A stretch of 64,000 bases of DNA from Ginglymostoma cirratum (taxonomy: Eukaryota). Numbering within the stretch: the first letter of the stretch is position 1; each line of letters begins with the position of its first letter. This document shows, in pieces, positions 3,169 to 55,464 of this stretch. A model generated the notes under the pieces. It did not search any database, had not been told where the DNA came from, and saw only the letters and a list, made by a program, of their open reading frames with translations. Location of the stretch: positions 16,591,563 through 16,655,562 of the forward strand of contig JAHRHZ010000098.1 of the NCBI GenBank assembly GCA_024137785.1, in the 5' to 3' direction. The translations under genes and the position numbers were made by a program.

Positions 3169-3208
3169 AATTGTCCTGATGAGTTCAAGAGAAAATGCTT
3201 TGCCAATT
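3169..3208 (+). ncRNA. Degenerate minimal type I hammerhead-ribozyme motif (PLE-type)
   Basis: aattgtc-CTGATGA-gttcaaga-GAAA-atgcttt-gccaatt. The flanks pair 6/7 as stem I, and stem II is damaged. Confidence 0.45.
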
Positions 3209-4680
3209 GTGTATTTTATCAGCAATACTCCAAATTGCATGCTACCGGATGATTTCTAAAAGCACATTACAAACATGATCTTCTCAACCATTTATGTACC
3301 ATGTTATAAAAGTTGCATTGCCATACATAACCCTCTCTAATGTTAGTTATTCAGTGAAACACATTTATTATTTTTGTTTCATAGCATTTCTGTAAAGAGG
3401 TGAAGGAAGTTTTGACAAGCACAATGCAGAACATGCTTGATGTTTATCCTGGTCTGTTTTAATTCCAGTGACGCCCTCCCCCTCCACTGGTCACAGAACC
3501 AGCAGGAGATCTGCATTGCTTCTGATGAAATATGCTCCAGGCATTTATCTGAATGAGGTTTCAAAATCACCACAGTCATGTTCCACGGAGGAAGGGCAGA
3601 AGTCCTGTCCCCATCACTGCTGGCCAATCAGATGCCTGTAGCTCACCACTGTTCGCTGCACCACTGAGAACTGTGGCCACAGCTGGTACTGCAGTAAGGC
3701 CCTGTCCCAGGATTATTGCTGGATGCTAGGACACAGATGAATGATTGCAGAATTGGTGTTGTAGGGAGGTAGTTGCTGGTGAGTGAGAGAAGTTGAGGGG
3801 AGCGGTGTGATCAGAGACAAGGCCAGTGAGATGGTTTTCAATTGCTCCATTTCCTTTTCAATGTTGGGTCCCACAATCGGGCACAGAATACCTGAAACCA
3901 AGGGATCACCAAAGGATCACTGTAAGGTCAGTGGGAAATCTGAGTCCCTTTTAATCCATGAGTCACCGCTAAAGTCTGGCAGAGTCCAGAAGAATTGATT
4001 TTCAATAAGTCATTAATGAGCCCATTAATGACATCCCATGCCAGGGTGAGTGGGATTCCCACATCGGGCTCCTGCCACCCTAAACTCATTTGTGATTGTT
4101 TCCATGAGGCCAGGAATCATATTCAATTCTCCATGCCTTGCCATGTTATTGTCTCCAGCTGACTCTACTAAATCTAACCTCTTGGCTGCATTATGCTCAT
4201 CATCACCACAACCTCCTCCAGTACAGATGGCTAAGAAGTGCTGACTTTGCCAGGGAGGCTGACATTTCATGAATGAATTAAAACAGAAGTTACTTAAGTT
4301 TGTGGACTGTTGCTGAGGTTAGCCAACGCCCATAGTGATACGGTAAGACTGATTGAGATTGCTGGACAGTGCGATGAGGTCAGTGAATTTTAACAATGAG
4401 GTTTATGGACTATGAGGCTGGTGGATTGTCACTGAAGCTGTTGGAATTGATGGTGATGATGTCCATAGCAGCTCTCATTTCCCTCTTTTGTAGCCCAGGC
4501 TGTGTGGAGTCTGCCCCCTGAGACCAGACACTGTCTCTTTGACAGCACCATTTTTAACCGATCACCCTCAGGGCAAGTTGTTGTACTCTCATTCTTCCCA
4601 TTCTGCATTGAGCTGGAGATTAATGTGATACTTTGATATCAATCAATGACTTACAGCAGGATAGAAATGAGATGAAAAAT

Positions 4681-4839
4681 CCACAGTCCAGAGATGTGCA
4701 GGTTAGGTGGATTGGTCATGCTAAATTGCCCATAGTGTTCAGGGATGTGTAGATTAGGCAGGTTATGGGGATGGCTCTGAGGGTCGGCGTGGACTTGTTG
4801 GGCCAAAGGGTCTGTTTCCACATTGTAGGGATTCTATGA
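4681..4839 (+). mobile_element. HE1-type V-SINE, 5'-truncated
   Basis: ccacagtcc.agatgtgcaggttaggtggattgg.catgctaaattgccc ... tgtttccaca.tgtagggattctatga. Matches the 3' half of the full copy at 49325. Confidence 0.9.
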
Positions 4840-5274
4840 AATAGTACTCAGTAAGTACTCCGTAACTTCCAGAGACCAGGATTACAAATATTTTAATTTT
4901 TTGCATTGTGGAGGGAGGGAGCTACTGATACTTCATTGAAATCTTTGCACAACTCAGAGACAGTGATAGACACACACCCCAAAAGCAGTTAAAAGTCCCA
5001 TGTAATAGATAACTGATTCCAATGCCTGTTTAAGACAAAATGTTAAAATTCTAAGATAGCTCAGAGAAAATATGTCTGATTAAAGTTGAGCTGTTTGTTT
5101 CTCATCTTTTTCTGTCTGAAAACTGTTTTAGAATTGAGCCACTGAGATAATAACCGATACTGTTTACCTGCTGGCTCTCTAAACTGAGTAAGTCAGATAT
5201 TAAGGAGTTGCATTTTTGCATTCCATGGTACAATCAAAGAGTGAAAGGTCAAGCTGAAGTGAGTGTAATCCTAC

Positions 5275-5440
5275 CAGATTGTAGGCTGCCCTCTCATTAG
5301 ACAGAGATGACTGTCTGGTGGCTTAACCTGAGCTTGACCACACCTCAGGCCAGGGGAGAGGTTGAGAAGGAAACTTCAGCCGAAGCTGAAATTGAACCCA
5401 CTTTGTTGGTGTCACTGTAAATTTGCAAAGCAGCTGTATT
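5275..5440 (-). mobile_element. tRNA-derived SINE (family distinct from HE1), decayed
   Basis: The minus strand has a B-box-like gtgggttcaatttc followed by the body cttctcaacctctcccctggcctgaggtgtggt...ctaatgagagggcagcc. Confidence 0.55.
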
Positions 5441-5709
5441 CTTAATGGTTTGTTTAACTAATTCTTCTCTGTGTAGTAGTGTACAGATTATTTTCCTTTT
5501 CCCACAAATTGTTTAATTCATCAAACCTTCTGGGCGTCAAGTCTAGGTTTGCCCTTTCATTTTCCAGTGAGGCAAGACCCTTCCCTGGGCACTCGGATTA
5601 ATGTGATGTTGGATAATCAGGTGACTCATTAGGTTAAGCATTGTCCTTGCATTTGTAGCTGGAGGATTAGAGTCTAAAGCTGTTAGATAAATTGAAACCA
5701 CGCAGGTTC

Positions 5710-6052
5710 ACATACACTGACACACAGACTCACTCATCCACGCATGCATGCACTCCTGCACTCACTGTCTCTCACATGTGCATGCACACAGACTCTCTCT
5801 TGCACACACACTCACTCACAAACACACACCCACGCACACATGTGCACACACACAATTGTGCACACACAATGACGCATATGCACATACAATCGTGCACACA
5901 CACACAATCGTGCACACACACATGCAATCATACATGTGCAATTACACACACACACACATACACACTCTGTCTCTCTCCCACTCTCACTCTCACTCCCACA
6001 CACACACACACACACACACACAGTCTCTCTCTCTCACAAACAGACTCACGCA
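5710..6052. repeat. Compound imperfect (CA)n/(CT)n microsatellite
   Basis: Directly visible CA runs, including an uninterrupted run at about 5997-6022, with interspersed (CT)n. It explains the His/Thr-rich ORFs. Confidence 0.95.
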
Positions 6053-6793
6053 CCCTTATGTCGCACCACCACGTCTGTTGACCGTGCTGTCTCTTTTGTT
6101 CTGTCTCTTTGTTTTGTTCACTCTCTCTCCTTCATAAATCATATCTGTAAACTCAACTTTTATCAGTGTTTCAGAAAGCTGAGTTTTTCAGTTTTTTTTA
6201 ATTGCTAGCATCGAAAACCAGCGGAACATGAACAAGAAATTAAGAGCCAGAAACCCAAGTATATTGGGAGAAAACAAATAAACCCAGTTCTTAATTTTAT
6301 TGTTCTGAGACCTCAAAGAGAGCAATCGGGGGACTAACAATGCATAGTTAAATTAAATGACACCCTGTAATTACTCCAACTGTTCATAGGCACTGTTTTT
6401 ATGGGCCTCAGTGGCAGCTTCAGAGATGTTGGCAAGCCAAGGCTCACAGCAGTTATGTTAATTAATGTTCACATGGTTTACTTGGCTGGAATCTGTAGTC
6501 AAATCTGGAAAACATTCTGATCATCAGTTGGGAAATTGAAGATTTAGGAAGCTGCATTTTTCAAATTTGGAATGTCTGTGTGGCACATTTCCAAAAGCCC
6601 TCTGGATACCATGCCTTCAGTTTCTTGAGCAGACAATTGTGGAACTGATTTGTGAGTTTCGCTTTGTCTTCACAATAAGTCACACAATTGGGAGAAAATA
6701 TTTTTTGGATTTTTTTAAAACCAAGTCAAACAAGGGTTGAACATGGGGCAGCATCACTTTCTAGAGGAATTCCTCACTGTTGGAATTTTTAAA

Positions 6794-7086
6794 ATAGAAT
6801 CCATACAGTATGGAAGCAGGCCATTTGGCACATTTAGTCCACACTGGCCCTCCAAAGAAAATCTGATTGAGACTCCCCACCCCCAGCATTGTATCCCTGC
6901 ACTTCCCATGGCTAATCCACCTATCTTGCACGGCCAATCTCCAAATTGCATGTCTTTGGACTACAGGAAGAAACCCATAGGGAGAATTTGCAAACTCCAC
7001 ACAGACAGTCACCCAAGGGTGGAACTGAACCTGGGTCCCTGGTGCTGTGTGGAAGCAGTGCTAACCACTGAGCCATTGTGCTGCCC
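6794..7086 (-). mobile_element. HE1-type V-SINE, near full length
   Basis: The reverse complement begins gggcagcacaatggctcagtggttagcactgct (A box), contains gggttcagttcc (B box) and tgtgtggagtttgca (V domain), and ends in a CR1-like tail. Confidence 0.9.
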
Positions 7087-8735: not shown

Positions 8736-10235
8736 ATTGTTACAGGTATTTGTGTTCGGGTCTCTGGTTTGGAACTTGAACCTCTAACTATGAGTAGCTT
8801 AAGTTTTATGCTTGCTTAGCATCCACTATTTGCACTACTTTCTGCTCAGTTTGCGCTTTTTCGTGGTATGTGTTTGCCAATGTGATTTGCAGTGTATATT
8901 GTTATAAGTTGATATGAGGTGCCTGTAAAAAAAGACATAAACATTTAGGTGAAGGATCAAGGAAATGTCTGGTTCATTATGTATGCAGAGTGCAGGTCTC
9001 TGTGTTAGGAGGATGCTGAATTGCTAGAATATTAGCACTCTTCAAATAATTAACAGCAATAAACTGGAGCTGACTTTCCTACAGTTCAGATTTCTATCTA
9101 TAAATAAAACCTTGCATGGACTGAGGCTGTGTGTTCTTTTATCAAGCACCCTTGTGGATGTCACCGTTTAATCCCTGGAAAGTAAGTTGGTAGTTGATGG
9201 TGGAAATTAAGATTTGGCAGGCTGCCAGGCTCGACACTGTGAGCTACATCCCAGATTGCTAATCATTGACGTGCAGAAAACACAAATGGGATTTCGGGAT
9301 AAACTGGAAATCAGACAAAAATACTCTTACAGGATTTTTTAGACACAGGCTTTGTTTGGAGAAGTGGGAGGTCAGAGCTAAGAAGACAAATCTACAGTGT
9401 AAGGCAGTTCAGAATTAATTAGTTTAGTGAAGTGGCAAGACCTTGGGACTTCAACAAGGCTACAGCGATTTGAATACAAAGTGCATAAAACTCGAGATGT
9501 ACAGCTACCTGGTGAATAAAAATTGTAAATTAATAAAAGGGTTTACAGTAAGCCAAGGTAGTGTGTCCAACCAACATGATTTATTGTCAAATCCTGGTGG
9601 CTGTTCTTTGTATTGCAGACATTTGGATAATTTTTTTTAACGCTGAAACTGCTGAACCAGAGCTTTGCACTTGCCAAAAAAATGCACGTAAACCGTGTCT
9701 GATTTTTCCAGTCTAAGGCCAATTAAATATACACAGCAAGCTCCCAAGCCAGACTGAGCCTGTAGGAAAGGGCATGCTGTTAACAATGGATTCAAGAAGT
9801 GATGTGTTGTTGCAGTGCATGACGGGTGTGATTTTCAATTGCCACCAGAGATGTTTACTTAAAAATAGCGGGCAATCAACCAAACATTTCCTTTTCCTGT
9901 ATTTGCGGAGATGTTTAAGCATCCCTAGTGGGAATTTTGCCTTTTTGTCAATAATACAAGGATACCTTTGCTTCCCCTTGGTGAAGTAGGAAATCCACAA
10001 ATGATCATGAATATCAGAATCTCAGGCAACAAGTTAGATTAGTGTTTTAGATATATATATCCTGCAAAATCCACTTCGAGTAGTTACTGTTACAAAAAGA
10101 CAGCATGTCTCCCTTTAACCAGTAAGTGTCCATTTGCCATGTGAGCTAAATGAATAGGGATTCCCCTTTTAAGAAACGCCTGGATTGTTCTTTCTCATGT
10201 TACGTTGCTATCCATTGATGTTAAACAAAACTGTT

Positions 10236-10350
10236 GCACAGAGACTGGGAGAATGAGCAAACTCCATAGGGACAGGCATCCAAGGCTGGAATCAAACCCG
10301 TGTCCCTGGCACTGTCAGGTAGCAGTGGTCACCACTGTGCCACCATGCCA
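10236..10350 (-). mobile_element. HE1-type V-SINE 5' fragment
   Basis: Reverse complement reads ggcatggtggcacagtggtgaccactgctacctgacagtgccagggacacgggtttgattcc...ggagtttgctcattctccc. Confidence 0.85.
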
Positions 10351-12369: not shown

Positions 12370-12371
12370 CA

Positions 12372-14940: not shown

Positions 14941-15087
14941 AAGGACAATATTTTTTCTTATATCTGTTCATAGGATGTGAACATCATTGGCACGACCAGC
15001 AATTATTTTAACAACCTAATTTGTGTTTGAAAATCTGGTGGTGCCTTCAAACTTTCTGAATATCCATGAACCGTATTTATAGCAATA

Positions 15088-15220
15088 AAACCAAAAGAAC
15101 TCTGAATGCTGGAAACCAAAAAGGAAAAGAGAAATTGTTGGAAAAACTCAGCAGGTCTGGCAGCATCAGCGGAGAGAAGTCAGAGTCAGTACTTTGGGAC
15201 CAGTAATCTTTCTTCAGAAC
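15088..15220 (-). mobile_element. PLE terminal-repeat (pLTR) fragment, family B, decayed hammerhead core
   Basis: ctcagcaggtctggcagcatc..ggagagaa...cttcttcagaac, homologous to 31785-31880. Confidence 0.75.
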
Positions 15221-16061
15221 TTATTTATAGCTAACAGTTTGTTATGTGGACACACAGAAGTAAGCAAAAGAAAGCTTTCAAGGTGACATACTATACAGGA
15301 TTTCCTTGTATATTTTGATGAAATCATACATTCACCCTTAATTGATATTTCTTGAGTCAAATAATCCTTTAATTTGGATATATTGAAACAGTTCACTTTT
15401 AAATTAAGTATGGTGGAATTGATATTTTTAAAATTGCACTTGAATCATTATTCCTAGCCATGAGTTGAGATAATTGTGCTGAGAGCTGGCTGTGAGTGAT
15501 GCCAGAGAGAAACCACAGTTGTTGGTGCTCAAGAGGCCGAGGTAAATGATGGGATTACAATAATGCTGAAGAGACTGGCAAAATCTGTTTGATAAGTTCC
15601 ACAAGCACCTTCACTGGGGATACATAGCAATGATGGAACTGATGTATTCAGCTATTGATAAAGTTAAACTGTAATGCTCTTGAATATTGTTTTTCAATCT
15701 CAGGGCTGCTTGATTGCTTTTTGATTTCAATAGAACTGTAATTTCCTTCATCAGATAATGCTGTCAGATGAGAGCTGTCACCACTTTTAAACACACTGGA
15801 TTTTCATTTACTCAACAGAAGGTATCGTGGTGACTCTTAAAACGTGCTACAATGAGAATAATTGCATTAGAAGCTTTGCAAGGTTCCTGCATTACGTTCT
15901 GCTTTTGTGTCTCAGTCCAGAAATGTAGTAGCAATTAACTCGTGATTCCTTCCAATATGTTTAACTAAGGTTTATCATGGAATGAAGTACTTTATTCCAC
16001 TCAGTTTACAACATCAATTTTTAGAATGAAAAGATACTCTAGCTGACCATTAAAGTTTAAG

Positions 16062-16461
16062 NNNNNNNNNNNNNNNNNNNNNNNNNNNNNNNNNNNNNNN
16101 NNNNNNNNNNNNNNNNNNNNNNNNNNNNNNNNNNNNNNNNNNNNNNNNNNNNNNNNNNNNNNNNNNNNNNNNNNNNNNNNNNNNNNNNNNNNNNNNNNNN
16201 NNNNNNNNNNNNNNNNNNNNNNNNNNNNNNNNNNNNNNNNNNNNNNNNNNNNNNNNNNNNNNNNNNNNNNNNNNNNNNNNNNNNNNNNNNNNNNNNNNNN
16301 NNNNNNNNNNNNNNNNNNNNNNNNNNNNNNNNNNNNNNNNNNNNNNNNNNNNNNNNNNNNNNNNNNNNNNNNNNNNNNNNNNNNNNNNNNNNNNNNNNNN
16401 NNNNNNNNNNNNNNNNNNNNNNNNNNNNNNNNNNNNNNNNNNNNNNNNNNNNNNNNNNNNN
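16062..16461. other. Assembly gap (400 N)
   Basis: Run of n in the sequence. Confidence 1.
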
Positions 16462-16466
16462 AAATG

Positions 16467-16590
16467 GTGAAGGGTTTAGGCCCGAAACGTCAAGTTTTCC
16501 TGCTCCTATGATGCTGCTTGACCTGTTGTGTTCATCCAGCCCCATGCTTGTTATCTCGGATTCTCCAGCATCTGCAGTACCTTTTATCTC
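16467..16590 (+). mobile_element. PLE pLTR-derived short element, family A (young subfamily), abutting the gap
   Basis: gaagggtttaggcccgaaacgtcaag...ctccagcatctgcagtaccttttatctc is nearly identical to the arms of 21476-21651. Confidence 0.85.
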
Positions 16591-16649
16591 TGATCCAATA
16601 AGCAGTTGTCTTCTACCATCTTTATCAGTTATCTGAAGAAAGGTTGAAT

Positions 16650-21280: not shown

Positions 21281-21382
21281 ATTTTTTTTTCTGAAGAAAG
21301 GTCCAGACCCAAAATGTCAGCTTTCCTGCTCCTCTGATGCTGCTTGGCCTGCTGTGTTCAGCCAGCTCTCCACCTTGTTATC
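21281..21382 (+). mobile_element. PLE pLTR-derived element, family A, single arm, 10-bp TSD
   Basis: ctgaagaaaggtccagacccaaaatgtcagc...ttgttatc, flanked by tctaaaatag at 21271-21280 and 21383-21392. The hammerhead GAAA has decayed to AAAA. Confidence 0.85.
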
Positions 21383-21475
21383 TCTAAAATAGGTAGTCTG
21401 GTCACTTATTTCAATACTATTTGTGTAAACTTGCTAGTTGCAAATTGTTGTACAACACTACTCTTGCAAAGTACT

Positions 21476-21651
21476 AGAGATAAAAGGTACTGCAGATGCT
21501 GGAGAATCCGAGATAACAAGCATGGGGCTGGATGAACACAGCAGGTCAAGCAGCATCATTTCTGATGAAGGGTTTAGGCCCGAAACGTCAAGCTTTCCTG
21601 CTCCTATGATGCTGCTTGACCTGCTGTGTTCATCCAGCCCTATGCTTGTTA
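21476..21651. mobile_element. Fold-back PLE pLTR-derived mini-element, family A, 14-bp TSD, intact hammerhead core
   Basis: Inverted arms (gataacaagcatggggctggatgaacacagcaggtcaagcagcatcat / atgatgctgcttgacctgctgtgttcatccagccctatgcttgttatc). TSD tcttgcaaagtact at 21462-21475 and 21652-21665. Confidence 0.9.
21562..21589 (+). ncRNA. Minimal hammerhead-ribozyme core
   Basis: CUGAUGA-A-GGGU(UUAG)GCCC-GAAA-C-GUC. All core nucleotides are present, stem III is the palindromic ACGU type, and stem I is only about 3 bp (UUU/AAG). Confidence 0.65.
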
Positions 21652-23171
21652 TCTTGCAAAGTACTTATTGGCTGTAATGCTCTCTGGGATGTATTGAGGT
21701 TGTGAAATGTGCAATATAAATGCAAATCTCTCAAATATTTAGAATAATTATAGTACATTAATGGTGGTTCAGTCATGTAAGAGAGTTATGCTTAATTGTT
21801 TTGTGAGAATATTCAACTATTACATTTTTCTTCTTTAAGGAGTTGAATCCTGTAGTATAAGTTAGCTTGATTTGGGACTGGAAGGCGCTAAGCGTAGAAT
21901 GGTCTGGGATGGGAGAGATGTAACGGGTGGGGCATAAGCGAGTGTAGTGAATATTTAATATCAGGGTGCGTATGAAGATGATGGAGGTAAAGAGGAGTGA
22001 CTTGCCGTGTTGATGACCCAGGCTAATTTTGCAGAGCTGGGAATCTCAAGAATTTTGGTACCATAAAATTTACCTTCGTACTTTTCCTCTTCTGGACTGC
22101 CATCTGACCAGGACCAGCATGTCAATAAGGCTACTCTTACAACTAGATCCCAAATGAGGTTCCCACATTTAGTCCCAATCCAGGCCTAATGCCCAAATTG
22201 CCAAGCTTTTGAGTTACAGGATATGCACTGACTCTCTTTTTTTTATTCATCCACTCCCTCAGTTTCTCACAGTAAGGCTAATTTACAAAGGACCCCCTCC
22301 TTTGAGGATACCTTACCTCAAGATCAAATGAATTTATGCTTTGAAAGGACCTAGGCTTTCTGAGTAAACAGAAGAATAAGCTTATAAATTACTAATGCAA
22401 GAGGAAATAATAATGCAACACGCATACACACAGGTTGAAAATGAGAAGTCCAAACTATAATATTGAAAAATATATAGGTTAGCCTTGGGCATTTGTGAAG
22501 GGTGGATAGTAGAGCATTTAATAGGTAAGTAGTATATTTTGGGATTCCTGGCTGTGATGTCCTTATTCTTTCAGATTGTGGTCAGCTTTTGGCACTCAGA
22601 GAAAGACAGTCCCTTACCTGCAACACAGAAGTGACTAGAGGGTCATTCTTCAACTATGACCTTCTACAGCATGCTAGTGCTCGAATCCAGGCTAGCACAT
22701 TTAGTACCTCAGCCAACTGGCGCACACGTGGATTTTTAGAACAAAGCTTGCAGGTCAGTCTAATGACAGGTGTGACTATTCAGATGATCTACTTCTTGAA
22801 GTTTCCATGGATTAGATTTCCAATTTTATTTCTGATTTGAATCACAGGATCTGAATTGATATATATCACATCATGTGATTTCGACTAAGGCACAGTGCAT
22901 CACGTGGATAGCATCAAATCTGCATGGAAGATGAGAAACAAATCACGTGTTGTGTACATGTGGACAGGAATTGCCTGCAACAATAAGTTTTGCACGAATT
23001 TTTCAGCTTCATAAAAGAAGTGTTGCATGTTTTGCTTAGTTTCTATAAAGAGGGCATCACTGGGGTAGTAATGTATGATTCCATGTACCTTTACACCAGA
23101 GCACAAGCTAAAACTCAGCATATATTGCAAGCAATACATGAAGTTGTTAATAAATTTGCTTGAATCGCGTC

Positions 23172-23501
23172 AGAGATAGTAAGAACTGCAGGTGCTGGAG
23201 TCAGAGATGACACAGTGTGGAGCTGGAGGAACACAGGAAAGTTGATGTTTCGGGTCAAGGCCCTTCTTCAGAAATGGGAAGGGGGAGGGGAGCTCCAAAA
23301 TAAATAGACAGAGGATGGGTGGGGCTGGGGAAGGTAGGTGGGATGGTGATAGGTGAATGCAGATAGGGAGTGGTGGGGATTGGTCAGTGAGGTGGGAGGG
23401 GTGGATAGGCGGGAGAGAAGATGGACAGGTTGTGTCAGGTCAAGGAGGCGGGGATGAGAGGGAGGGTTGGTCATGGGATGAGGCTGGGGCTGGGGAGATT
23501 T
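23172..23501 (-). mobile_element. PLE 3' UTR/pLTR, family A, longer copy
   Basis: Family-A terminus gagatagtaagaactgcaggtgctggag. Minus-strand CUGAAGA-A-GGGCCUUGACCC-GAAA-C-AUC at about 23244-23271, followed on + by a purine/G-rich UTR. Confidence 0.8.
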
Positions 23502-24209
23502 TGTGTGTTTTGCATGACAAACGGGTTAAAAACTTGCTAAATAATTTCCTTCTGTAGACTGTGGTTATAGCCAACTGTTAGAGTTCCGAAAAGGTTCCTT
23601 AATAGGTTTAGGAATTGGCTATGTAGCTGGGAAAATGAGGCACAGACTGAAAAATGTGAACATGTGCCACCCAGGACAGTGAGTGAATGTGCTAAGACTG
23701 ATTTAATGCTCAGATTCTCATAAAATTCTATCCTAGGTCTAAAATACATGAGAACAAGAATTTAATTCCCTCAAAAGAAATTGCTCAACTGTTGCTGAAA
23801 AATAAATAGTTGGACAGGCAAATGTGAGTTTGTGCAACTAAATCTGAAAGATTTCATAAGACTTTACTTACTTTGGTTTCCCATAAAATAATGAGATCTC
23901 AGAAGGAAAAAAGTGAACATTTGTTGCAGTTTTGAAGATATATATGGCTGGTAGTGCTACCAATGACTCTGATTGATTTCCAGTTTCCAGGTCCTGTAGA
24001 TTTTGTGTAAGAATAAAAAGACTGAGGGAATATAAACTGCTATAAGCACTCAATGGTTCAGGCGTCATCTGTGCAGAGAGAAAATGAGTTAATCTTTCAT
24101 GTCAATGAGCTACTTTTGGGAAGGCTGAAAGTGTTTTAGGTTTTAAGGTAGTGCAGGGTACAATCTCTCAAATCCAACAGCCCCAGACTGTGCCAAATTG
24201 TGGATTTTC

Positions 24210-24746
24210 TTTTACTCATTCATGGGATATGGGCATTTATTGTACAGGGGATAGTTGAGGGTCAATGGATTGCTGTGGATCTGGATTCACATGTAGACCA
24301 GTCCAGGTACAGCTGGCAGTTTTCCTTCCCTGAAGGATATTAGTGAATCCGATGGGATTTTTCCCCAACAATTGGCAACAGTTTCATGGTCATCATTAGA
24401 CTCTGAATTGGGAACAATAACAAAGTTGCTGGAAAAGCGCAGCAGGTCTGGCAGCACCTGTGAAGGAGAAAAGAGTCAGGTGACCTTCCTCAGACCCGAA
24501 ACGTTAACTCATTTCTTTTTTTCCCTTCACAGATGCTGCCAGACCTGCTGAGCTTTTCCAGCAACTTTGTTTTTGTTCCTGATTTACAGCATCCACAGTT
24601 CTTTCGGTTTTTGTTGGACTCTTAATTCCAGATTTCCATTGAATTGAAATTGCACTGTCTGCCATGTTGGATTTGAACACAGGACCCTAGAATATTGCCT
24701 GAATATCTGGATGAATGGTCTAGTGATAATATCACTAGGCTATCCA
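24210..24746 (-). mobile_element. tRNA-derived SINE whose 3' tail matches the LINE at 40526-41808, interrupted
   Basis: Minus strand: tagcctagtgatattatcactagac (A box), gtgttcaaatcc (B box), body, and tail atatcccatgaatgagtaaa. Confidence 0.75.
24411..24612. mobile_element. Fold-back PLE pLTR-derived mini-element, family B, nested in a SINE
   Basis: Inverted arms ggaacaa.aacaaagttgctggaaaagc.cagcaggtctggcagca.ctgtgaagg and its complement. Probable TSD gactctgaatt (24399-24409) / gactcttaatt (24617-24627). Confidence 0.85.
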
Positions 24747-25399: not shown

Positions 25400-25550
25400 T
25401 GTGACAGGCAGTCAGTGTCACTGTTAGGAGAAGGTGAGGTGAGGGCCCTGTGAGAGGCAGTCAGTGTCACTGTGAGGAGGAGGTAAGGTGAGGTGAGGGC
25501 CCTGTGACAGGCAGTCAGTGTCACTGAGAGGAGAAGGTGAGGGGAGGTGA
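25400..25550. repeat. Minisatellite, 3 units of about 49-54 bp
   Basis: Units tgtgacaggcagtcagtgtcactg..aggagaaggtgaggtgagggccc start at 25400, 25449 and 25503. Confidence 0.9.
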
Positions 25551-27002: not shown

Positions 27003-27205
27003 TGCTGGAAATCTGGAATAAAAAGAGGGAAACTTGGAGAAAGGAATCCTGGCAGCATCCTAGGAGGGAGAGAAAGAGTCACGTTGGTCTCGTAAAGTTA
27101 ACTCTGTTTTTTCCTCTGATTCTTCTAGACTTACTGCTGTTCTTCAGGTATTTATTGTTTTCCAGAAACTGAAAACGTCTCACAGCATCTCTGGATAGAG
27201 AAACT
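27003..27205. mobile_element. Old, decayed fold-back PLE pLTR-type element
   Basis: tgctggaaatctggaataaaa...ctggcagcatc...gagagaaagagt / gttaactctgttttt. Confidence 0.5.
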
Positions 27206-28013: not shown

Positions 28014-28357
28014 TCATAGAATCCCTACAGTGTAGGAGCAGGCCATGCAGCCCATTGAGTTCATACTGATCATCCAAAGACCATCCCACCCAGACCAAGC
28101 TCCCTACTGTATATCCCTGCATTTCCTGTGGCTAATCCACTTCACTTGTACATCCATGAACATGATGGGCAATTTAACGTGGCAAATCCACCTAACCTGC
28201 ACATCTTTGGACTGTGGGAGGAAACTGGAGCATCCCCACAGAGACAACCATGGAGAATGTGCAAACTCCACATGTACAGTTGCCTGAGGCTAAAATTGAC
28301 CCTGGGTCCCTGGTGTTGTGAGGCAGCAGTGCTAATCACTGAGACACTGTGCCACGC
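28014..28357 (-). mobile_element. HE1-type V-SINE, near full length
   Basis: tcatagaatccctacagtgt...acctaacctgcacatctttggactgtgggaggaaac...gcagcagtgctaatcactgagacac. Possible TSD tgtgctg (28004-28010 / 28358-28364). Confidence 0.9.
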
Positions 28358-31781: not shown

Positions 31782-32328
31782 ACAAAAACGAATTGCTGGA
31801 AGAGCTCAGCAGGTCTGGCAGCATCTGTGGAGAGAAACTACAGTTAACGTTTCAGGTCCAGTGCCCCTTCTTCAGAACTGATGGTAGCTAGGAATATGGC
31901 TTTTTATGCGGAAGATAGGGTGGGGGAAGGGGGTAAGATGCAAATGATAAATGTAGGTGGAGCCTAAAGAGTAAGAACAGTTGGACAGACAAAGGAGTGG
32001 ATAATGATCAACCTGGGAAAATGAATAGCTACTCTTAGGGACTGTTAATAGCTAGCAATGAGTTGTGTGTAATAACAGAACTTGTGATATCAGGACCTGG
32101 TGTGGGGTTGGCGTAAGGATGTGGGAGAAGGTGCCTCAAGACCTAAAACGATTGAGCGTGATATTGAGTCCAGAAGGCCGTAGAGTTCCCAAGCAGAAAA
32201 TGAGGTGCTGTTCTCCTAGAAACATTAACTCTGATTTCTCTCCACAGATGCTGCCAGACCTGCTGAGCTTCTCAAGCAACTTCTATTTTTGTTCCAGATT
32301 TACAGTGTCCACAGTTCTTTCAGTTTTA
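31782..32328 (-). mobile_element. 5'-truncated Penelope-like element: GIY-YIG C-terminus, pLTR and inverted pLTR (family B)
   Basis: Minus strand 32213-32160 encodes EQHLIFCLGTLRPSGLNI, the PLE endonuclease end motif E...I..L.TL.P.GLN. It is followed by UTR/pLTR down to 31782, and 32220-32328 is an inverted copy of the pLTR end. Confidence 0.9.
31841..31880 (-). ncRNA. Minimal type I hammerhead ribozyme in a PLE pLTR
   Basis: CAGUU-CUGAAGA-A-GGGGC(ACUG)GACCU-GAAA-C-GUU-AACUG. Perfect 5-bp stem I, intact core, one mismatch in stem II, palindromic AACGUU stem III. Confidence 0.7.
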
Positions 32329-34351
32329 TCACGTGTATTCCATCTCCCTGTAATTAATGTTTTTTTCTATAAGTAATACTTCTAAATATTTATTTCTTTA
32401 CATGATCAATGTCTTCTCACAGGGACAATATCACTCATTTTTGATGAAAATATAGACATAAATTGTTTTGATTTATTTAAGATTTGTTTAGATTCTGAAT
32501 TTCCTTACCAGAAATATTATAGTTTATCTGGAGTATAAAACTTAACTATTGTTCTGAAGCTTAAAGAAGCATTTATTACTGAATAGAAACCTGTCTATGT
32601 ACAGTGTAATGAAGCATGGTTTTGAGTCGCTGGATAATTGTTGAAGTTCTCACAGTCTATTTTCTCAGTATCATCTTACATCAAATTAACAACATACTGA
32701 ACAGCATTTCCCATGTTGTGTGAAGCTGGATAAAGCAGCTGCTGATGCGGGCACCAAGTGAAAATATTTGAATATGTGATAATGCAATAATGCACAATGC
32801 AATCCTGAATCCTGCAGTGTAACTCTGAACAATCCAATATTTCATCTCAACAACTATTGATCAACATAGAAGACCCATGATTCCCTTTAGCAAAATAAAT
32901 AGGAGAGACTTTATTAACCGTGCAGAAACACAATTTCATTTACTTTACAGCAGCAAAATTCACTTTCACATCGCAATTGTGTAGGTCTCACAGTTAAGGT
33001 TAATGCAGAAAAAGAACATGAAACAATAATTGTCCTAGCCTTTGTTTACCAGTAATGCATTCAATCACCATTTGAGCTTTATATTTAATGTGTTAGATGT
33101 TTATGCTGCATTAAACTGTCTGCAAATGCACTTAACACCATCCTGAACTCTGTTTTCTATCCAGCTTGCTCTCTTTAACATGTTAAGTGAGGTCCAGTTT
33201 AGGTCCATTGTAAAAATTAATGTAAGCATTTTCAGCATAGTGCAACACAACGAAATGTAGATATTAATATTTGATAACTAATTTGAGCAGCCATGGATGG
33301 TTCTATGGACTGAGCAATAATAGAAAATTTTGTGCTAATCATTTCATCTCCATTCTTCTTTGGATTGTTTCCATCTGTGCAGAGATGGGGACAGTGGGGA
33401 AAAAGTGAAAATCAACTTAGAGGGACTAACTTTTTGCAACATCTGCCTTTTTTTTGGAATGTATCTAATTGAAATACTGTAACAGTCATGTGAGTAAAAT
33501 GAATTTAACTTTTCTGTCATGCTTCAACCCTCAGACTTTCTTAGCATAACTTCCGAAGCGCCATTGGGGAAATTGCCAGTGCAAAAGCTGTCACACAAAA
33601 ACGCAGAACTATTCCCTATATTTCAGTTTGTGATCTTGCTTCAGAAGATCAAAAAATGTCAGTGATCATAAAATGGCAGTTTTCATTAAAGTACGCAATT
33701 GCATATCCTCAGTCTTTCCAGCACATGATAATCAATCAATTACTTTTAATAGGCAGTGGCATGATAAAGTGATTCAGGGAATAAATAAGATGATTGTTGA
33801 AATAGCCTGTTTGTTTGGGTGGTATTGGTTGTTTGGGAATGTTGACCACAATATTAGGAGAGCTTGCTGCTCTGTGTTACATTTGTTTTTGGTAATTTGC
33901 ATGAGATAATTTCCCTTGGGATCAGTATGACTGTATGTGGACCTTGTCTTCTCCACTTATTCAGTATTGGTTTGGAGGTTGAGTTCTGAATGTCATTAGA
34001 ATCAGTTCAATGGCCTAAAACCTTCAACGATGCACTTGTTTTAAAAAAAAGTCTTCTGAAGCAAGTAATGACGTGGGTAACTTTTAAAAAAAAGCCGAGG
34101 AGCAGCTAATCCAAGTGACACCAGATAGTGCTGGTCTCTGATATGTGCAGCCAACTTGATAAGTAGATGACAACAAAGCTTCAGATATCAGCCACAATAT
34201 ATTCCTTTTTCCAAGAGTTGCACATCTGTCACAGAATATGACAAATGTGGAAGTAATATTTTAAAAGCAATGTTCATTTTGCTACCTAGTAGTCATTGTT
34301 TGGGGAATTAAACATTATAGAATATTAATTCTACAAGGAATTGTATAGATA

Positions 34352-35045: not shown

Positions 35046-36489
35046 TCTGAGTCTTCAGCTAATGAGTCAGAGGCTCTCATGTTCCATGTTAGAAGATAAT
35101 TAGCATTTGAGTGTACCAGTAATCCTTTTTGAAGCTGCACTTCACTTACAGTCTGAGGGCAGCAATAATATTACGGATCTTTTGAGGTTTAAACATCATT
35201 TTTGCATTATTATTATTAAATGCAAAGAAGGTTTCAAATAACTGCCCAACACCAAAGGAAGGTACTTTCTGTCTCCATCATTTTTTTAGTTATGTCTTGT
35301 AACAGTATTGCTATCTGGTCTAAAGTGTACATCACAATTGATCTTAATATCTCTCGGGCATCTCTTCGCAAGACAATCTGGATCTTCTGGTCTTTTCTGG
35401 AAAACCTTACTCGACAGTACATTATATGCTGATTAAGTGTGAGAATAAAATCTGGCTCACTTGTGATTTCTGTCGTGATAGAACAACATACTGACAGAAG
35501 TTGACTGGATCCACACATGGGAAACAAATTACCATATTGGGATGTAGACCCTTATTCAAATATATTCCTTTACAATGCATTTAGATTGTGTTTACATTTG
35601 TTTACTTTTATACACACATTTAATTTCAAATGAAGACATGCCTGTCTTTGAGTTGACAGTATTGAGGCTAAAACACGTGTGTTCCTATTAGATGACTTGT
35701 CTGCCTTGCCATTGCATTGTAATTCAAGAGGATTCTCCAGGCCTTGGACTCCTGTAGGAAAAATATTATTGTTCTGTTCTCTGGTGTGAGTTTTTGTTGT
35801 TAAATCAGAAGATAAGTGCCTACCTAGCCAATTCTACATGAGGCCAAGAGGAGCATCCCATCTACTACTACACTTAGTAACCGATTCCGAATTTGTAAAA
35901 CAAAACATTGATTAACCACTTTTTTCTTACTGTAACGTTTTTTATGATCCTGTAAGGGACTGTAAATGCTTAAAAAAGACATCCAAACATCCAGCAATCA
36001 GAATTTAACCATGAGATTTCTCATTCTGGATTTTGCCTCATTCTCATTCCACATGATGAACGATGAAGGTATTATTTTCGCTGCTTGATGTACAGTCCTA
36101 ACCGACTCTCATCTCCTATTACATACATAATCTGGTAACGTGCCCTACACCAAAACAAAACTATAGTTGTCCCGTCTGTTCCCAAAACGGAACTATACAT
36201 CAACATAAGTAAAGGTATTGACTACCCAGGCCACCTCTATGATGATGTGGAATGCACTGGGATTTAACAAACAGAAATTCAAGCAACTTATTTATCTTCA
36301 GTGCCACTCTTTGATTCCATAACCCAAATGAATAATTTGTATTTCTCAAAGAGAGCATGCAACACGAGAGCCTTTAACTCATGAGCTGATGAGTCAGATA
36401 TTTGCAGTATCCGGAGAGACCATTTGGCCCATTGCACAGAGGAACTTTTTTTTTCTACAAAGCTGCTTTCAGTTTCCTTTCATTTGGAA

Positions 36490-36614
36490 TGATGTGGAGG
36501 TGCCAGTGTTAGGCTTGGGTGAACAAAGTCAGAACTCTCACGTCACCAGGTTATAGTCCAACAGTTTATCACAAGCTTTCAGAGTGTAGCCCCTTCAACA
36601 GGTGAAGTCTTTCA
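36490..36614 (-). mobile_element. PLE pLTR-type short element, family C, 13-bp TSD
   Basis: caccaggttatagtccaacag..tt...cacaagctttc...ccttcaacaggtga. TSD ctttcatttggaa at 36477-36489 and 36615-36627. Minus-strand hammerhead-like core with A6->U. Confidence 0.75.
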
Positions 36615-40528: not shown

Positions 40529-41808
40529 TGGCCAGGAATGCCCGGTACACAAAAACCACAACAGATCCAACCCAGCCAATTACTGCCCCATCAGTCTACT
40601 CTTGATCATCAGTAAAGTGATGGAAGATGTCATCAACGGTGCTATCAAGCAGCACCAGCTCAGCAATAACCTGCTCAGTGATGCCCAGTTTGGTTTCTGC
40701 CAGAGCTACTCAGCTCCTGACCTCACTACAGCCTTGACCCAAACATGGACAAAAGAGCTGAATTCCAGAGGTGAGCTAAGAGTGACAACCCTTGACATCA
40801 TGGATGTAATCAACTGAGTGTGGCATTAAGGAGCCCTAACAACACTCGAATCAATGGGTATTGGGGGAAAACTCTCTGGTGGTTGGAGTTATACCTGGCA
40901 TATAGGAAGATGGCTGTGGTTGTTGGAGGTTAATTATCTCAGCTCCAGGGCATCTCTGTAGGAGTTCCTCAGCCCAACCATCTTCAGCTGCTCCATCAAT
41001 GACCTTCCCTCGACAATAAGATCACAAGTGGGGATGTTCACCGATGATTGCACCAGGTTCAGCACCATTTGCGACTCCTCAGATACTGAAGCAGTCCGTG
41101 TTCAAATGCAACAAGATCTGGACAATATCCAGGCTGAGGCTGACAAGTGGCAAGTGACATTCGCGCCACACAAATGCCAGGCTATGACCATCACCAATAA
41201 GAGACAATGTAACCACCACCCCTCGACAGTCAACGGTGTTACCATCACTGAATCCCCCACTATCAACATCCCGGCGGTTACCATTGACCAGAAACTCAAC
41301 TGGACTCACCACGTAAACACAGTGGCTACAAGAACAGGTCAGAGGCTAGAAATACTGCAGCAAGTAACTCACCTGCTGACTCCCCAAAGCCTGTCCACCA
41401 TCTACAAGGCACAAGGCTGAAGAAGTGTGATGGAATACTCCCCACTTGCCTGGATGGGTGTGGCTCCAAAGGCACTCACGAAGCTTGACACCATCCAGGA
41501 CAAGACAGCCCACTTGATTGGCACTACACCCACAAGCATCCACTGCCTTCACCACCGCCGCTCAGTAGCAGCAGTGTGTAGTATCTACAAGATGCACTGC
41601 AGAAATTCACCAAAGATCCTCAGATAGCATCTTACAAACCCACGATCGCTTCCATCTAGAAGGGCAAGGGCAGCATATATACGGGAGCACCACCAACAGC
41701 AACTCAAGAAGGCAGCTCACCACCACCTTCTCAAGGGCAACTAGGGATGGGCAAGAAATGCTGGCCAGCCAGTGACGCACACATCCCACAAAAATGAATA
41801 AAACAAAA
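40526..41808 (+). mobile_element. 5'-truncated CR1/L2-group LINE (RT domain to 3' tail), pseudogenised
   Basis: PVHK...SNPANYCPISLL.IISKVME, QFGF, GVPQ (following GSVLG deleted), INDLP, MFTDD, WQVTFAPHKCQ, IYKAQ, MEYSPLAW. Tail gggcaactagggatgggc...acatcccac...gaataaaa. Confidence 0.92.
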
Positions 41809-47249: not shown

Positions 47250-48165
47250 TATTTTTCTTCATCCTTTTACGGAATACGGTCATTTCTGCCGAGGATGACA
47301 TTTGTTGCCCATTATGAGGTGCCCTTGGAAAGGTGATGGCGATCTGCCTTTCTGATCTAATGCAATCCTTGTGGCATAGGGACAGAATAGGAGCCCCAGG
47401 ATTTAGATCCAATGATAGTGAGAGGATAGTGATATGGTTCTTAGGCAGGATAGCACATGGTGTGGAGGGGATTTTGTTGGTAGCATTGTTCTGATGTATC
47501 TCCTGACATTTTCCTTCTAAGTGGGAGAGATCTTGTGTTTAGATGGTGCTTTTGGAAGGCAAAATTGATGAGGCAATTGAACCTTGATGAGGCACTGCAG
47601 TACACCTTGTATCTAATGCACATTGCTGCCGCCATGCATCAGTAATTAAGGATGTAAATGTTAAGATTGGCAGATGGGGTGTGAATCAAGTAGGCTGCTT
47701 TGTTCTACACATAGCCGGGTTTCTTGAATGTAATTGGAGCTGCATTCACCCAGGTTAGTGGAACGTATTCCATCACATTTTTGACTAGTGCTTTGTAGAT
47801 GCTGGCTTGGCTTTTGAGAGCCCAAGAAGAGGGCTTCAGAATTCTTCTTTCAGATTTCCCAATCTCTGACCCGTTGTTAAAACTATAGTATATTTATGGT
47901 TTCTGCAGTTTGGTTTCTGGTTAATGGTAACTTAGTGGGGGATTCAGCAATGTAATGTCACTGAATGTCAAGGTGTGGAGGTGCTGGAGTTGGACTGGGG
48001 CGGACACATTCAGAAATCACATGGCACCAGCTTATAGTTCAACAGGTTTATTTGAAAACACAAGTTTTTGGAGCCTCAGTCCTCCTTAAAGTATCAAGGG
48101 AGATGTTGTGCTCTGTCTTGTCAGAGATGGTCATTGCTTGGCACTTGTGTGGTGCAAATGTCAAG
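47250..48165 (-). mobile_element. Decayed copy of the 40526-type LINE (3' about 0.8 kb), interrupted at about 47974-48090
   Basis: gatggtcattgcttggcacttgtgtggtgcaaatgt (minus strand FAPHKCQAMTI), ggaacgtattccatcaca (MEY), and tail tttttcttcatcc...catttgttgccca. Confidence 0.75.
47974..48090 (-). mobile_element. PLE pLTR-type short element, family C, decayed
   Basis: tgtggaggtgc.gg.gttggactgggg.ggaca...caccagcttatagttcaacaggtttatttgaaaacacaag, homologous to 36490-36614. Confidence 0.7.
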
Positions 48166-49270: not shown

Positions 49271-49324
49271 TGACAGGTCAAATAGCCTCCTTCATCAGTT
49301 TCCAACCTTCTCCAATAGTGACTT

Positions 49325-49638
49325 GGGGGCGGCACGGTGGCACAGTGGTTAGCACTACTGCCTCATAGCACCAGGGACCTGGATTTGATTCCACCCTTGG
49401 GCAACTGTCTGTGTGGAGTTTGCACATTCTCCCTGTGTCTGTGTGGGTTTGCTCCGGTTTCCTCCCACAGTCCAAAGATGTGCAGGTTAGGTTGTTTGGC
49501 CAAGCTAAATTGCCCGTAGTGTTCAGGGAGGTGTAGATTAGGTGTGTTATGGGGGATGGGTCTGGGTGGGATGCTCTGAGGTTCAGTGTGGACTTGTTGG
49601 GCCAAAGGGCCTGTTTCCACACTGTAGGGATTCTATCT
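49325..49638 (+). mobile_element. HE1-type V-SINE, full length
   Basis: ggcggcacggtggcacagtggttagcact (A box), ggatttgattcc (mutated B box), V domain tgtgtggagtttgcacattctccc...ggtttcctcccacagtccaaagatgtgc, and CR1-like tail gggcctgtttccacactgtagggattcta. Confidence 0.95.
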
Positions 49639-49795: not shown

Positions 49796-50278
49796 TGTGG
49801 CTCAGTTGGTAGCACTGTGACCTTTGAGCCTGAAGTCATGGATTCAAGCCCCATTCTAGAGGTGTAAGCATAAATTCTAGGCTGACACAGTACTGCTGTA
49901 CTGAGGGAATGCTGCAGTGTCAGAGGTGTTGGATGAGACATGAATCCAAAGCCTTGACTACTCATTCAGGAGGTGGTATGAGATCCAATGGCACTACTTT
50001 GAAGGAAGGGAGTTTGTGCCAGTACCCTGGCCAATATATTTCCTTCACTCAATAATGCTGAAGCAGATTATCTGGCCATTGTCATAATACTGTTTGATGG
50101 GGTTGGTGGGAGTTTCCTGTACCTAAATAAGCTGCCGGGTTTCCAACAATATAACTTTGAAACTGCTACTATGGCTATAGGGGTAATAGGAACTGCAGAT
50201 GCTGGAGAATCTGAGATAAACCACTTTGAAACATTTTGAGATGTTGAAAGGCACTATATAAACCCAAGCCCTTTTACT
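49796..50278 (+). mobile_element. Deu-domain SINE (SacSINE1-like), near full length
   Basis: tggctcagttggtagcac (A box), ggattcaagccc (B box), Deu domain ggatgagac...agatccaatggcactactttgaag...cctggccaatat, and tail gaaaggcactatataaa. Confidence 0.8.
50181..50219 (-). mobile_element. 39-bp terminal fragment of PLE family A inside a DeuSINE tail
   Basis: gtaataggaactgcagatgctggagaatctgagataa matches the family-A terminus (compare 21477-21517). Confidence 0.75.
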
Positions 50279-50821: not shown

Positions 50822-51160
50822 CATAGAGTCATAGAATTGGTCCAATGCCGTCCATGCCGACCAGATAACCTAAATTAATCCAGTCTCATTTGCTAGCATT
50901 TGGCCCATATCCCTTTAAACACTTCCTATTCATATACCCATCTAGATGTCTTTTAAATGTTGTAATTGTACCTCCACCACTTCCTCTGGCAGCTCATTCC
51001 ACTCATGCACCACCCTCTGCATGAAAAAGTTGCCCCTTAGGTCCCTTTTATATCTATCCCCTCTGACCTTAAACCCATGCCCACTAATTTTGGACTCCCT
51101 TACCATGGGGTACTATTCATCCTATCCAAGCCCGTCATGATTTTATGAACCTCTATAAGG
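50822..51160 (-). mobile_element. CR1/HER1-type LINE 3' end
   Basis: catagagtcataga tail. Minus strand GH.FKVRG.RYKRDLRGNFFMQRVVHEWNELPEEVVE. Confidence 0.9.
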
Positions 51161-53037: not shown

Positions 53038-53226
53038 CAGGTAGTTCTGCTACAATGCAATAATTGTGTTCTTGCGTGACCTCGCTCTACAGAAAATCGC
53101 CATCAAAAATCACATTACAGGGAAATCGCTGTAGGAAATTGCTATACCTATACAGCATTCACTATTCATTATTCGTGTTACAACCAATTTGTGTTAACAA
53201 AACACGCATTATAGCAGAACTGCCTG
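53038..53226. mobile_element. Tigger/pogo-type MITE (189 bp)
   Basis: TIRs caggtagttctgctacaatgc / gcattatagcagaactgcctg (19/21) with TA on both sides. The TIR core gttctgcta is shared with 38574-39891. Confidence 0.9.
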
Positions 53227-53399
53227 TATATCCTTGTTGAGGGGAGCACAGCAGAGAGCTGCAAGAGGAGGAAGGCACCAGATAAGGCATCAGGAAGGCC
53301 ATTGAGAGTCAGCTACTCGCAAAAACAATGTTATAGGAGGTTGTACCTCTCAAAGCTCAGCTGCTGTTGAACAATTATACTTGTTTATAATTATTTGAG

Positions 53400-54080
53400 G
53401 CATCACAGCCCCCTGTAGTGGCTCTCTGTGTGCAGCCAAAATATTTTCGTTTATCCAAAGATCAACTGAAGATGAGGGTAGTGTCTCACGGTTAGTAGCT
53501 CATAATGCCATCAGGCAGGTCACCAATGTCTTCTGCCAGAGGATGGGGTATGTTTCCAATCTGAAACAAATCAGCCAACTCAGGCACCAGGGATTTTCCA
53601 CCCCTGATAGATATTCTCAGGTCCAGGAGCTATCACTTGTTCTTATGCAACCATCAAAGTACTAACAGATCTGCCAGATAGATTGCTACCTGTCACTGAA
53701 TGTCCAGCTGCTCTATGACCATAAGAAGAGCATGTTGTAAGTCAGTGCCCTGTTTCTAGACAGATGTTGTGATTCCTTCCAGTTCTTGCACCGTCTCATC
53801 AGCATCCAGACTTTCTAGATAACTGCTGGGGAAATTCTCTGAGAAAGGTGATTCCTGACCACATCTGGTACCCAGCCATGGTGGCAGAGAGATGTTGCAA
53901 CCAAGCTCATCTACTCTGCCATGTCCCTGCGTTGAACAGACCTGTAGAATCTTGAGGATGTGTCTCTATGACCTTGACTGGTTGGGTAGCACCAACCTAG
54001 AATGGAAAAGCAGGAGTGCCTAGTGTTGTGATCATCTGCTTAGTCCTGCACTACATGATGCTACAAAAACAATTGGAGCT
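53400..54080 (+). mobile_element. PIF/Harbinger transposase relic (HARBI1-like DDE)
   Basis: AHNAIRQVTNVF, SLNVQLLYDHKKSML*VSALFLDRCCDSF, VEQTCRILRMCLYDLDWLG and VVIICLVLHY follow the Harbinger motif order HSLNVQ.VCD, A.FPGS.HDS, IE...GLLK.RFRCLD, CC.LHN. Confidence 0.75.
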
Positions 54081-55255
54081 GGATGCAGGGGAGGACCTGA
54101 ACTCTTCCTTAGAGTCAGACTGAAAAGAGGATAGATAGGGTGTTCCAGATGATTCCAGCCTTGAAGCATTAAGATCTTTCCAGCTCTGTCATAAATTGGC
54201 AATTATTATTCCTAACCTATAGTCTAACCTTGCTTTTCAAGCATTCCAAAGGACAGGGGCAATAATTTGCTGTGAAATAATGACGAGGCTAATGCTTTTA
54301 ATGAATTGGTCAATGACGACAGCTGAGCACAAATGTGCAGTCAAATATTAAAGCTACTGCCCTTATTAAAACTGAGCTAAAATGGCATCTCGCCATCTGG
54401 TTCCCTGTTTATATGTAGCTACTTCCAGTTCAGTCTAAATAACCTTTTAATGGTGTTATAACTTTTCATTTTACTAATAAAAAACCTCTCTGGTACTGAA
54501 AATTAATTTTTACCTATGTTGAATCCCATTCCTTTGCCTCTTAATTGTTGTTGGTAAATTTAAAAGGATCTAAATTATCTTGATATTTCTACAACATTTT
54601 TTCTATTTTTTTTAATCTCTTCTGCAGACCCCATTCTAATCATCAATTATTCTTCAATCGGATTTTTTAAGGAGGCACATGGTTGTTTGGCCTATTCATA
54701 AATCCCAGATGCCTCATGAAGAGTACTGTGCTGTTTCAATCTCCCACTTGCAACAACTTACTGCACAAAAACCTGTAGAAGTGAAACATATGAAGACAAA
54801 TTTAACAAATGGTGCAGTTCATTGGCTGGTTTCCATAAATTCTGGCTAAATATGTTCATACCATGGATATAATTATAGTTGATCAAGAGGGAGTTTGGAG
54901 CATTTAGTTTCAAATATGACAAAGTAACTAGTTAAAAAGAGTTGCACAAAAAAAGACATAAGTACAATATTTAAATACTGTGGCCAATATATTTCCTTAA
55001 AATTGACATAGGTGTCTCGCAATTGCCTATTATTCACAGATCAGTAACAATGCTTTTATTAGTTATTATTAATCTGGGTGATAATAATTAATAGCGGAAA
55101 TACTGGGATCATTATTTGTTGCTTCTCAGTTAAACTATGTACATATATCAAATTTATTTTCATTGTGAAATACAGCTCATTCATGCTGACATGCAAAGAT
55201 CCAAATAACTTTATTCTTCAGTTGAAGCAAATGGGCAAAAGTCCAAGACACATTT

Positions 55256-55464
55256 GTGTGCAGCTGGATGAACACAGCAGGCCAGGCAGCATCAGAGGAG
55301 CAGGAAAGCTGACGTTTCGGGTCTGCACCCTTCCTCATTTTCTGAAGAAGGGTCCAGACCCGAAACATCGGCTTTCCTGCTCCTCTGATGCTGCCTGGCC
55401 TGCTGTGTTCATCCAGCTCTACACTTTGTTATCTCAGACTCCAGCATCGGCAGTTCCTACTATC
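55256..55464. mobile_element. Fold-back PLE pLTR-derived mini-element, family A, with back-to-back hammerhead cores and a 14-bp TSD
   Basis: Inverted arms of about 75 bp around 55337-55342. TSD tccaagacacattt (55242-55255) / tccaagacatattt (55465-55478). Confidence 0.9.

Follow-up and report, generated by a model that had tools for sequence, protein, structure and literature searches.

Reverse transcription that runs off the front of an uncleaved RNA is the probable source of the small hammerhead-bearing elements dispersed over a 64,000-nucleotide stretch of the Ginglymostoma cirratum genome (positions 16,591,563 to 16,655,562 of contig JAHRHZ010000098.1, assembly GCA_024137785.1; hereafter the window). 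All 12 sites listed for this stretch in an initial annotation are pieces of pseudo-long terminal repeats (pLTRs) and belong to four repeat families, A-D, of Penelope-like elements (PLEs), with C and D as provisional members. As judged from where the copies end, the cut ends of one or both target strands probably primed reverse transcription on the first pLTR, which then ran off an RNA that would start about 4 nt before the hammerhead core. The copies in the window look like dead-end by-products and not like a self-copying family.

Ends of the copies

Copy ends were measured in an unselected sample of the source assembly (4.36 Gb), consisting of 140 stretches of 10 kb, the last 20 of which were neighbours of readable ones; 52 of the 140 were all N, and 841,873 bases were readable. 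A profile search of these ~842 kb found 214 pLTR arms (A, 128; B, 65; C, 21), a count that drops arms scoring below 30 or stopping short of +70 and leaves out family D. Arm coordinates are given with the C of CUGA as 0. The 3' ends of the 214 arms lie mostly at two sites about 34 nt apart, a distance equal to the known PLE tail, and those of family A are two-peaked, with 47 of 128 at +88 to +99 and 69 of 128 at +120 to +127. In the Poseidon element of Anolis this tail has been mapped to two start sites of the reverse transcriptase (RT) (PMC11167929).

The 5' ends cluster at -8 to +12 (62 of 128 A arms and 38 of 65 B arms; 4.2% per nt at risk), which bears out the earlier remark that several arms start within a few nt of CUGA. 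The same annotation had raised the possibility that the ends are defined by ribozyme cleavage, and this does not hold: the edge lies about 30 nt upstream of the NUH cleavage site, and the site itself (+25 to +32) is the end of only 5 of 128 arms in A and 1 of 65 in B (0.59% and 0.20% per nt). The RNA that was copied would therefore have held an uncut ribozyme. Truncation, offered there as the alternative, fares no better if taken as random, since the rate 30-300 nt upstream is only 0.1-0.25% per nt and the family A edge is 17-20 times denser than that region. Solo A arms end at -11 to +11 in 35 of 90 cases; among unselected solo arms of family C, 2 of 6 end at -7, too few to separate an initiator (Inr) from helix I.

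Three further observations bear on the nature of this edge. Two copies long enough to include the open reading frame (ORF), L251 and L245, begin at -3 and -4, next to an inverted pLTR. A run of at least four T is present in 16 of 40 short copies as against 1 of 43 read-through copies (p 2e-5); the corresponding extra-T signature of family B was not significant (T in 7 of 11, p 0.11). Finally, the non-parental base before A(-4) is, genome-wide, G in 901 cases and T in 242, although from base composition T should be the commoner. Of the first 100 T cases listed, about 60 read CT and are likely mutants of the parent, while 80 of the first 100 G cases listed read TG, and all 12 G-junction loci that were fetched are short copies, some with repeated 5' pieces. 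A non-parental G in this position fits a cap. An extra G as a record of the cap is familiar from work on long interspersed elements (LINEs); no passage on it was found in the literature searched. Exact young A1 cores number 30,099 genome-wide, 15,393 of them with the parental 11 nt upstream, so that about half of the intact A1 cores lack this sequence, some being point mutants.

Repeated 5'-end pieces occur in short A1 copies at L281-L292 and at L101 (about 9122-9260); in L282, a single two-unit case among selected loci, a second short arm was re-primed head to tail. At the junctions in L101, L283 and L292, one and the same non-parental G seems to terminate each of the two arms. The repeated pieces and the shared G junctions suggest that RT re-initiates, or jumps between templates, at the end of the RNA. 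A 3' splice site was also considered as the 5' edge and rejected, as no AG is apparent there in family A. Just past the hammerhead of family B (+30 to +60), a branch-point-like motif, a pyrimidine tract and a CAG ahead of an ATG may form a 3' splice site.

Parent elements

Relatives of two window copies, 23172 (family A) and 31782 (family B), extend upstream through a 3' untranslated region (UTR) into an ORF with RT, CxxC and GIY-YIG parts. At L159, a family A parent, RVT_1 was matched with E 2.9e-6, below the curated cut-off, and GIY-YIG with E 1.1e-4. The same RT and GIY-YIG motifs were recognized by eye at family B loci; the single family B peptide scanned gave no Pfam match. Three loci (L241, L257 and L260) contain the tandem unit of 3' UTR, hammerhead, tail and ORF in this order, the pLTR running on into the ORF. 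The parents of A and B are thus endonuclease-bearing (EN+) PLEs with RT followed by a C-terminal GIY-YIG domain, a pLTR in partial tandem, an optional inverted copy and a tail. In this respect the PLE origin and the inverted pLTRs put forward at the outset stand, the latter in 46 inverted pairs.

Translations of both families have a CX4CxxC linker between RT and EN. A CX2-5CxxC linker in this place is given for Neptune and shared with Nematis (PMC8557442), and the A and B parents would fit the Neptune clade, as well as Nematis, by this motif, a match of motif and not a placement in a tree. For family C the shared upstream sequence reaches up to ~600 nt, with two 3' ends and inverted pairs, and for family D ~130 nt; no ORF was reached in either. 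Between about +850 and +1050 from the core, and before the RT, the family A ORF (L241, L257, L260) contains a low-complexity Ala/Thr/Pro/Asp repeat of variable length, which recalls the Asn-rich inserts of Adineta PLEs.

Fold-backs and self-propagation

The 46 inverted pairs (42 from the sample and 4 from the window) include 37 with both outer ends scorable and 9 without. In 34 of these 37, one arm ends at the inner and the other at the outer site (p 6e-8). Target site duplications (TSDs) of at least 7 bp flank 30 of the 46 pairs as against 3 of 46 controls. All 46 junctions, in a list read by eye, are different; many overlap by microhomology, some are palindromic and some contain 10-30 nt of filler, and the arms of young fold-backs are near-identical. 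The near-identity and the palindromic junctions would suit the snap-back proposed for PLEs of Adineta (PMC3846280), in which one strand folds back on the palindrome of the junction and primes itself, perhaps with an antisense template. Such self-priming leaves unexplained, however, why, in 34 of 37 pairs, the two outer ends belong to different start sites, and also how the filler arose, and we consider it very improbable here. Priming of both strands, each at its own start site, is preferred.

The initial annotation had also raised a self-propagating class, resembling retrozymes or miniature inverted-repeat transposable elements (MITEs), in which short hammerhead units would be transcribed, cleaved, perhaps circularized and recopied by the PLE protein. 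The abundance of the arms, 214 in 842 kb, would be in keeping with it, as would the recurrence of the 21476 junction (13 + 11 exact copies) and the report of PLE-derived retrozymes in vertebrates, including one chondrichthyan (10.64898/2026.07.22.740005); moreover, junctions alone cannot separate recopied solo arms, ending at the inner start site, from run-off products. Yet 24 exact copies of the recurring junction stand beside 30,099 intact cores, and the junction occurs on the background of several subfamilies, its T number being 3, 4 or 5. None of 82 cores in the sample and window has a same-strand neighbour within 1 kb, the window contains no head-to-tail hammerhead array, the ends lie away from the cut site, and the hammerhead is broken or missing in 10 of the 12 window copies. 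The head-to-tail units with ends at the cut site that characterize non-LTR retrozymes are accordingly lacking, as is the common internal junction with both ends, shared by many copies, of a MITE or a short interspersed element (SINE).

A master family had been suggested by the 30 best matches to 21476, a set selected by the query, and was rejected on the unselected junctions and the exact counts. Because the junctions differ, the 21476 junction is rare and the cores are not in tandem, both a master family and a tandem retrozyme layout are rejected, and a self-propagating class appears scarcely probable. Unique junctions had been expected to favour simple truncation over an independent family; they do speak against such a family, yet the truncation is not random.

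Proposed run-off from the first pLTR

In the mechanism that we favour, the parent RNA would start about 4 nt before CUGA, at the Inr-like CCA(-4)TTTC in family A, would be capped and would serve as an uncleaved template. An RT dimer would cut both target strands and prime each at a different start site, the 3' end sites being read as RT start sites by analogy with the Anolis element (PMC11167929). Priming on the first pLTR would allow only ~100 or 132 nt to be copied before run-off. One such product would give a solo arm, and two cDNAs would join head to head, often by microhomology, to give a fold-back with the tail on one side. Priming on a downstream pLTR would yield ordinary truncated copies such as 23172 and 31782. 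The short copies would be dead ends, lacking the stretch of RNA 3' of the tail on which the Anolis protein depends. The A at -4 fits the initiator consensus YYANWYY. Inr-type pLTR promoters have been reported for PLEs of Drosophila and Adineta (PMC2377424, PMC3846280), and uncleaved RNA is the main substrate in Anolis (PMC11167929), in agreement with the uncut template proposed here. That the edge would be the 5' end of the RNA is suggested by the solo arms, the two ORF-long copies at -3 and -4, the stutter in the T run and the non-parental G.

Several points weigh against this interpretation. The edge is soft, spread from -6 to +6 with no single base, and 8 of 10 copies unbroken from the ORF into the pLTR read on upstream into the 3' UTR. 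Family A has a second cluster of 5' ends at +33 to +44 (16 of 128 arms), 5-16 nt beyond the predicted cut, which could represent cleaved templates, perhaps trimmed; microhomology at a T/C run may account for it instead. The G-junction copies make up a small share (901 of roughly 14,700), and in at least 3 of the 12 fetched loci (L286, L288 and L290) the G is attributable to microhomology with the target or the inverted arm. The G excess was not significant in the unselected sample (7 of 17, p 0.11) and was absent from family B (1 of 3 non-parental bases). The non-CpG positions of the core vary less than non-core positions in short copies (2.4% versus 4.9%, a comparison biased by anchoring on the core). 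The likely RNA start at about -4 is read from genomic copies, the ends of old copies derived from hidden Markov models are accurate only to a few nt, and the all-N stretches took 52 of 140 from the sample. In addition, 6 of 25 young A1 cores have an N run no more than 150 nt away. Such runs near young A1 cores, seen at 16062-16461 in the window and at sample loci, mean that young fold-backs may be under-counted.

The same parent and dual priming could also be combined with a different edge, in that RNA structure or local palindromes just where the hammerhead begins would make the RT halt or would favour joining there. The softness of the edge is in line with this, as are the microhomology overlaps at many junctions, the short inverted repeats that flank the core in A, B and C and the predicted pairing of upstream sequence with the core in B and C. 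On the other hand, solo arms, which have no partner to join, share this end point; of 10 ORF-long copies only 2 stop at the edge, when about 6 would be expected from the short-arm rate; and the stutter and the extra G are marks of the end of a template. We therefore regard a structural stop as unlikely and retain run-off at the RNA 5' end as the probable explanation.

The hammerhead motif

By its core, helices and palindrome the motif corresponds to a predicted minimal type I hammerhead, as had been claimed. With a minimal descriptor the first sample yielded 27 hits, and shuffled sequences 2, 1 and 0. Of the 12 listed sites, most of which had been described as carrying all or part of the motif, only 21476 and 31782 pass the full descriptor; cores or stems are broken in 47974, 15088, 21281, 36490 and 3169, and 50181 is a tail without a hammerhead. 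A scan against Rfam returned no hammerhead match at E<=5, and its miRNA matches, all under the gathering score, were discarded as hairpin artefacts.

Pairs 1-3 of helix II are kept in 67-69 of 72 A copies, 27-28 of 33 B copies and 10-11 of 11 C copies. Helix I differs on both strands across families (UU/AA, AGUU/AACU, UCAC/GUGA, UUGUC/GACAA), and the helix III palindromes are ACGU, AACGUU and AAGCUU. These changes in helix I and the palindrome resemble those of minimal PLE hammerheads (PMC4209133), four families amounting to few independent events. Some stems are short, helix I of A having 2-4 bp and helix II of D 2 bp. Minimum-energy folding gave no hammerhead for the A and B copies folded, and in the dimer fold helix II paired between molecules without forming a hammerhead, an uninformative result. 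The hammerhead of 55256 is predicted to be buried in a hairpin stem. In short copies the core G12 is changed in 12 of 70 cases and other CpGs in 39 of 210, a similar decay.

Copies in the window

The copies are listed in Table 1. Family A comprises sites 16467, 21281, 21476, 23172, 50181 and 55256, family B 15088, 24411 and 31782, family C 36490 and 47974, and family D 3169; the estimate of about four families with at least ten copies was correct, and a weak 13th site can be added. The three fold-backs described earlier (21476, 24411 and 55256) are genuine, with folding z of -14.6 and -20.8 for two of them, and 31782 is a fourth, longer inverted pair. Not all sites are tiny, as 23172 and 31782 extend 232 and 352 nt upstream. 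TSDs, first counted as five of 10-14 bp, were found at six sites: they are exact at 21476, 36490, 21281 and 15088 and imperfect at 55256 and at 24411, the latter read by eye (13 bp, 2 mismatches).

Table 1. PLE-derived copies in the window, with arm limits relative to the C of CUGA
Feature	Position	Strand	Remarks
Family D pLTR remnant	3110..3256	+	CUGAUGA core at 3176; helix II and GAAA decayed
Family B solo arm, -4 to +130	15085..15226	-	Hammerhead decayed; 10-bp TSD
Young family A1 arm ending at outer start site (+127)	16465..16591	+	5' end adjoins N run, not assessable
Family A2 solo arm to inner start site (+94)	21281..21385	+	Long T run at 5' edge; GAAA mutated; 10-bp TSD
A1 fold-back 21476, inverted arm, +127 to +44	21476..21559	-	Bears 34-nt tail; 14-bp TSD of the fold-back at 21462/21652
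A1 fold-back 21476, sense arm, -5 to +94	21557..21654	+	Intact predicted minimal hammerhead, core 21562, predicted cut after 21589
Family A2 ordinary 5'-truncated copy, -232 to +123	23172..23503	-	3' UTR and pLTR
Family B fold-back	24411..24612	- / +	Arms about 24411-24499 (minus) and 24491-24612 (plus); no whole hammerhead in either arm
Weak, old family B remnant (13th site, not in the initial annotation)	27070..27162	+	E 1e-4
Family B long arm, -352 to +95	31782..32219	-	Last ~29 ORF codons, 3' UTR, hammerhead (core 31875)
Family B inverted partner arm of 31782, +21 to +130	32218..32329	+	Includes tail
Family C solo arm, -7 to +116	36490..36608	-	Core mutated; 13-bp TSD at 36477/36615
Family C solo arm	47974..48099	-	Core lost or decayed
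Family A tail fragment, +87 to +126	50178..50219	-	Without hammerhead
Family A2 fold-back	55255..55466		Inverted arm +83 to +1, sense arm about -4 to +124; 14-bp TSD, 1 mismatch

The window contains other repeats as well. Another dispersed family, 79-92% alike, occupies 4681-4839, 6794-7086, 10237-10349, 28014-28353 and 49327-49636 and presumably resembles a shark SINE such as HE1. At 40962-41420 a 152-aa frame resembles, by eye, the RT end of a CR1/L2-type LINE, and a 54-bp tandem repeat of 2.9 copies is found at 25400-25550.

Relation to known elements

The architecture of these elements is already in print, and they are ordinary in kind. With the EN+ PLE insertions that carry an inverted truncated pLTR (PMC8557442), such as Pen2a_Av of Adineta (PMC3846280), they share partial tandems, a head-to-head inverted pLTR, a one-sided tail of 33-34 nt (30-40 bp) on one arm, TSDs of 7-16 bp, a pLTR reaching towards the ORF start and an Inr-like pLTR motif. 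Unlike the insertions described in those sources, the copies here are mostly pLTR-only, very numerous and have a common 5' edge, and the use of one arm per start site has been counted (34 of 37). Minimal PLE hammerheads (PMC4209133) have the same CUGANGA, bulged A before helix II, G-C first pair, palindrome after GAA and short helix I; they are mostly single motifs with some opposite-strand pairs, ascribed there to truncated PLEs. The available text of that paper does not map copy ends against the hammerhead motif.

In Poseidon of Anolis (PAc; PMC11167929), too, the tail is delimited by two internal RT start sites, the enzyme cuts and extends both strands, the main substrate is uncleaved RNA and a dimer is predicted. 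Poseidon belongs, however, to a different clade, as no CxxC linker is expected in Penelope/Poseidon (PMC8557442), and the accessible part of PMC11167929 does not treat first-pLTR run-off or fold-back products. Non-LTR retrozymes, as described in PMC7229834 and 10.64898/2026.07.22.740005, are also short, non-coding, equipped with a type I hammerhead and related to PLE pLTRs, but they are head-to-tail tandems processed from cut site to cut site, whereas the copies here are solo or head-to-head, one end lying at an RT start site and the other before helix I. No record of these families or of first-pLTR run-off was found in a literature search whose scope excluded most subscription papers, Repbase and supplements.

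Implications

The mechanism of PLE transposition and the role of its ribozyme are described as open (PMC11167929, PMC8557442), and the stubs are valuable as evidence on both. Three predictions open to bench tests follow from the counts: transcripts would be capped and begin at about -4, each target strand would be primed at a single start site, and the template RNA would be uncleaved. In annotation, the hammerhead hits of this genome, which run to tens of thousands, are best kept out of any tally of retrozymes, being likely passive stubs. More tentatively, the stubs may constitute a fossil record of several hundred thousand PLE insertions, in which a dimer would prime both strands, using one start site on each, and would copy an RNA that is capped, uncleaved and begun 4 nt ahead of the hammerhead. 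With the ribozyme thus at the extreme 5' end of the mRNA, its cleavage would take off the cap and limit translation or copying; it would not be what makes the template.

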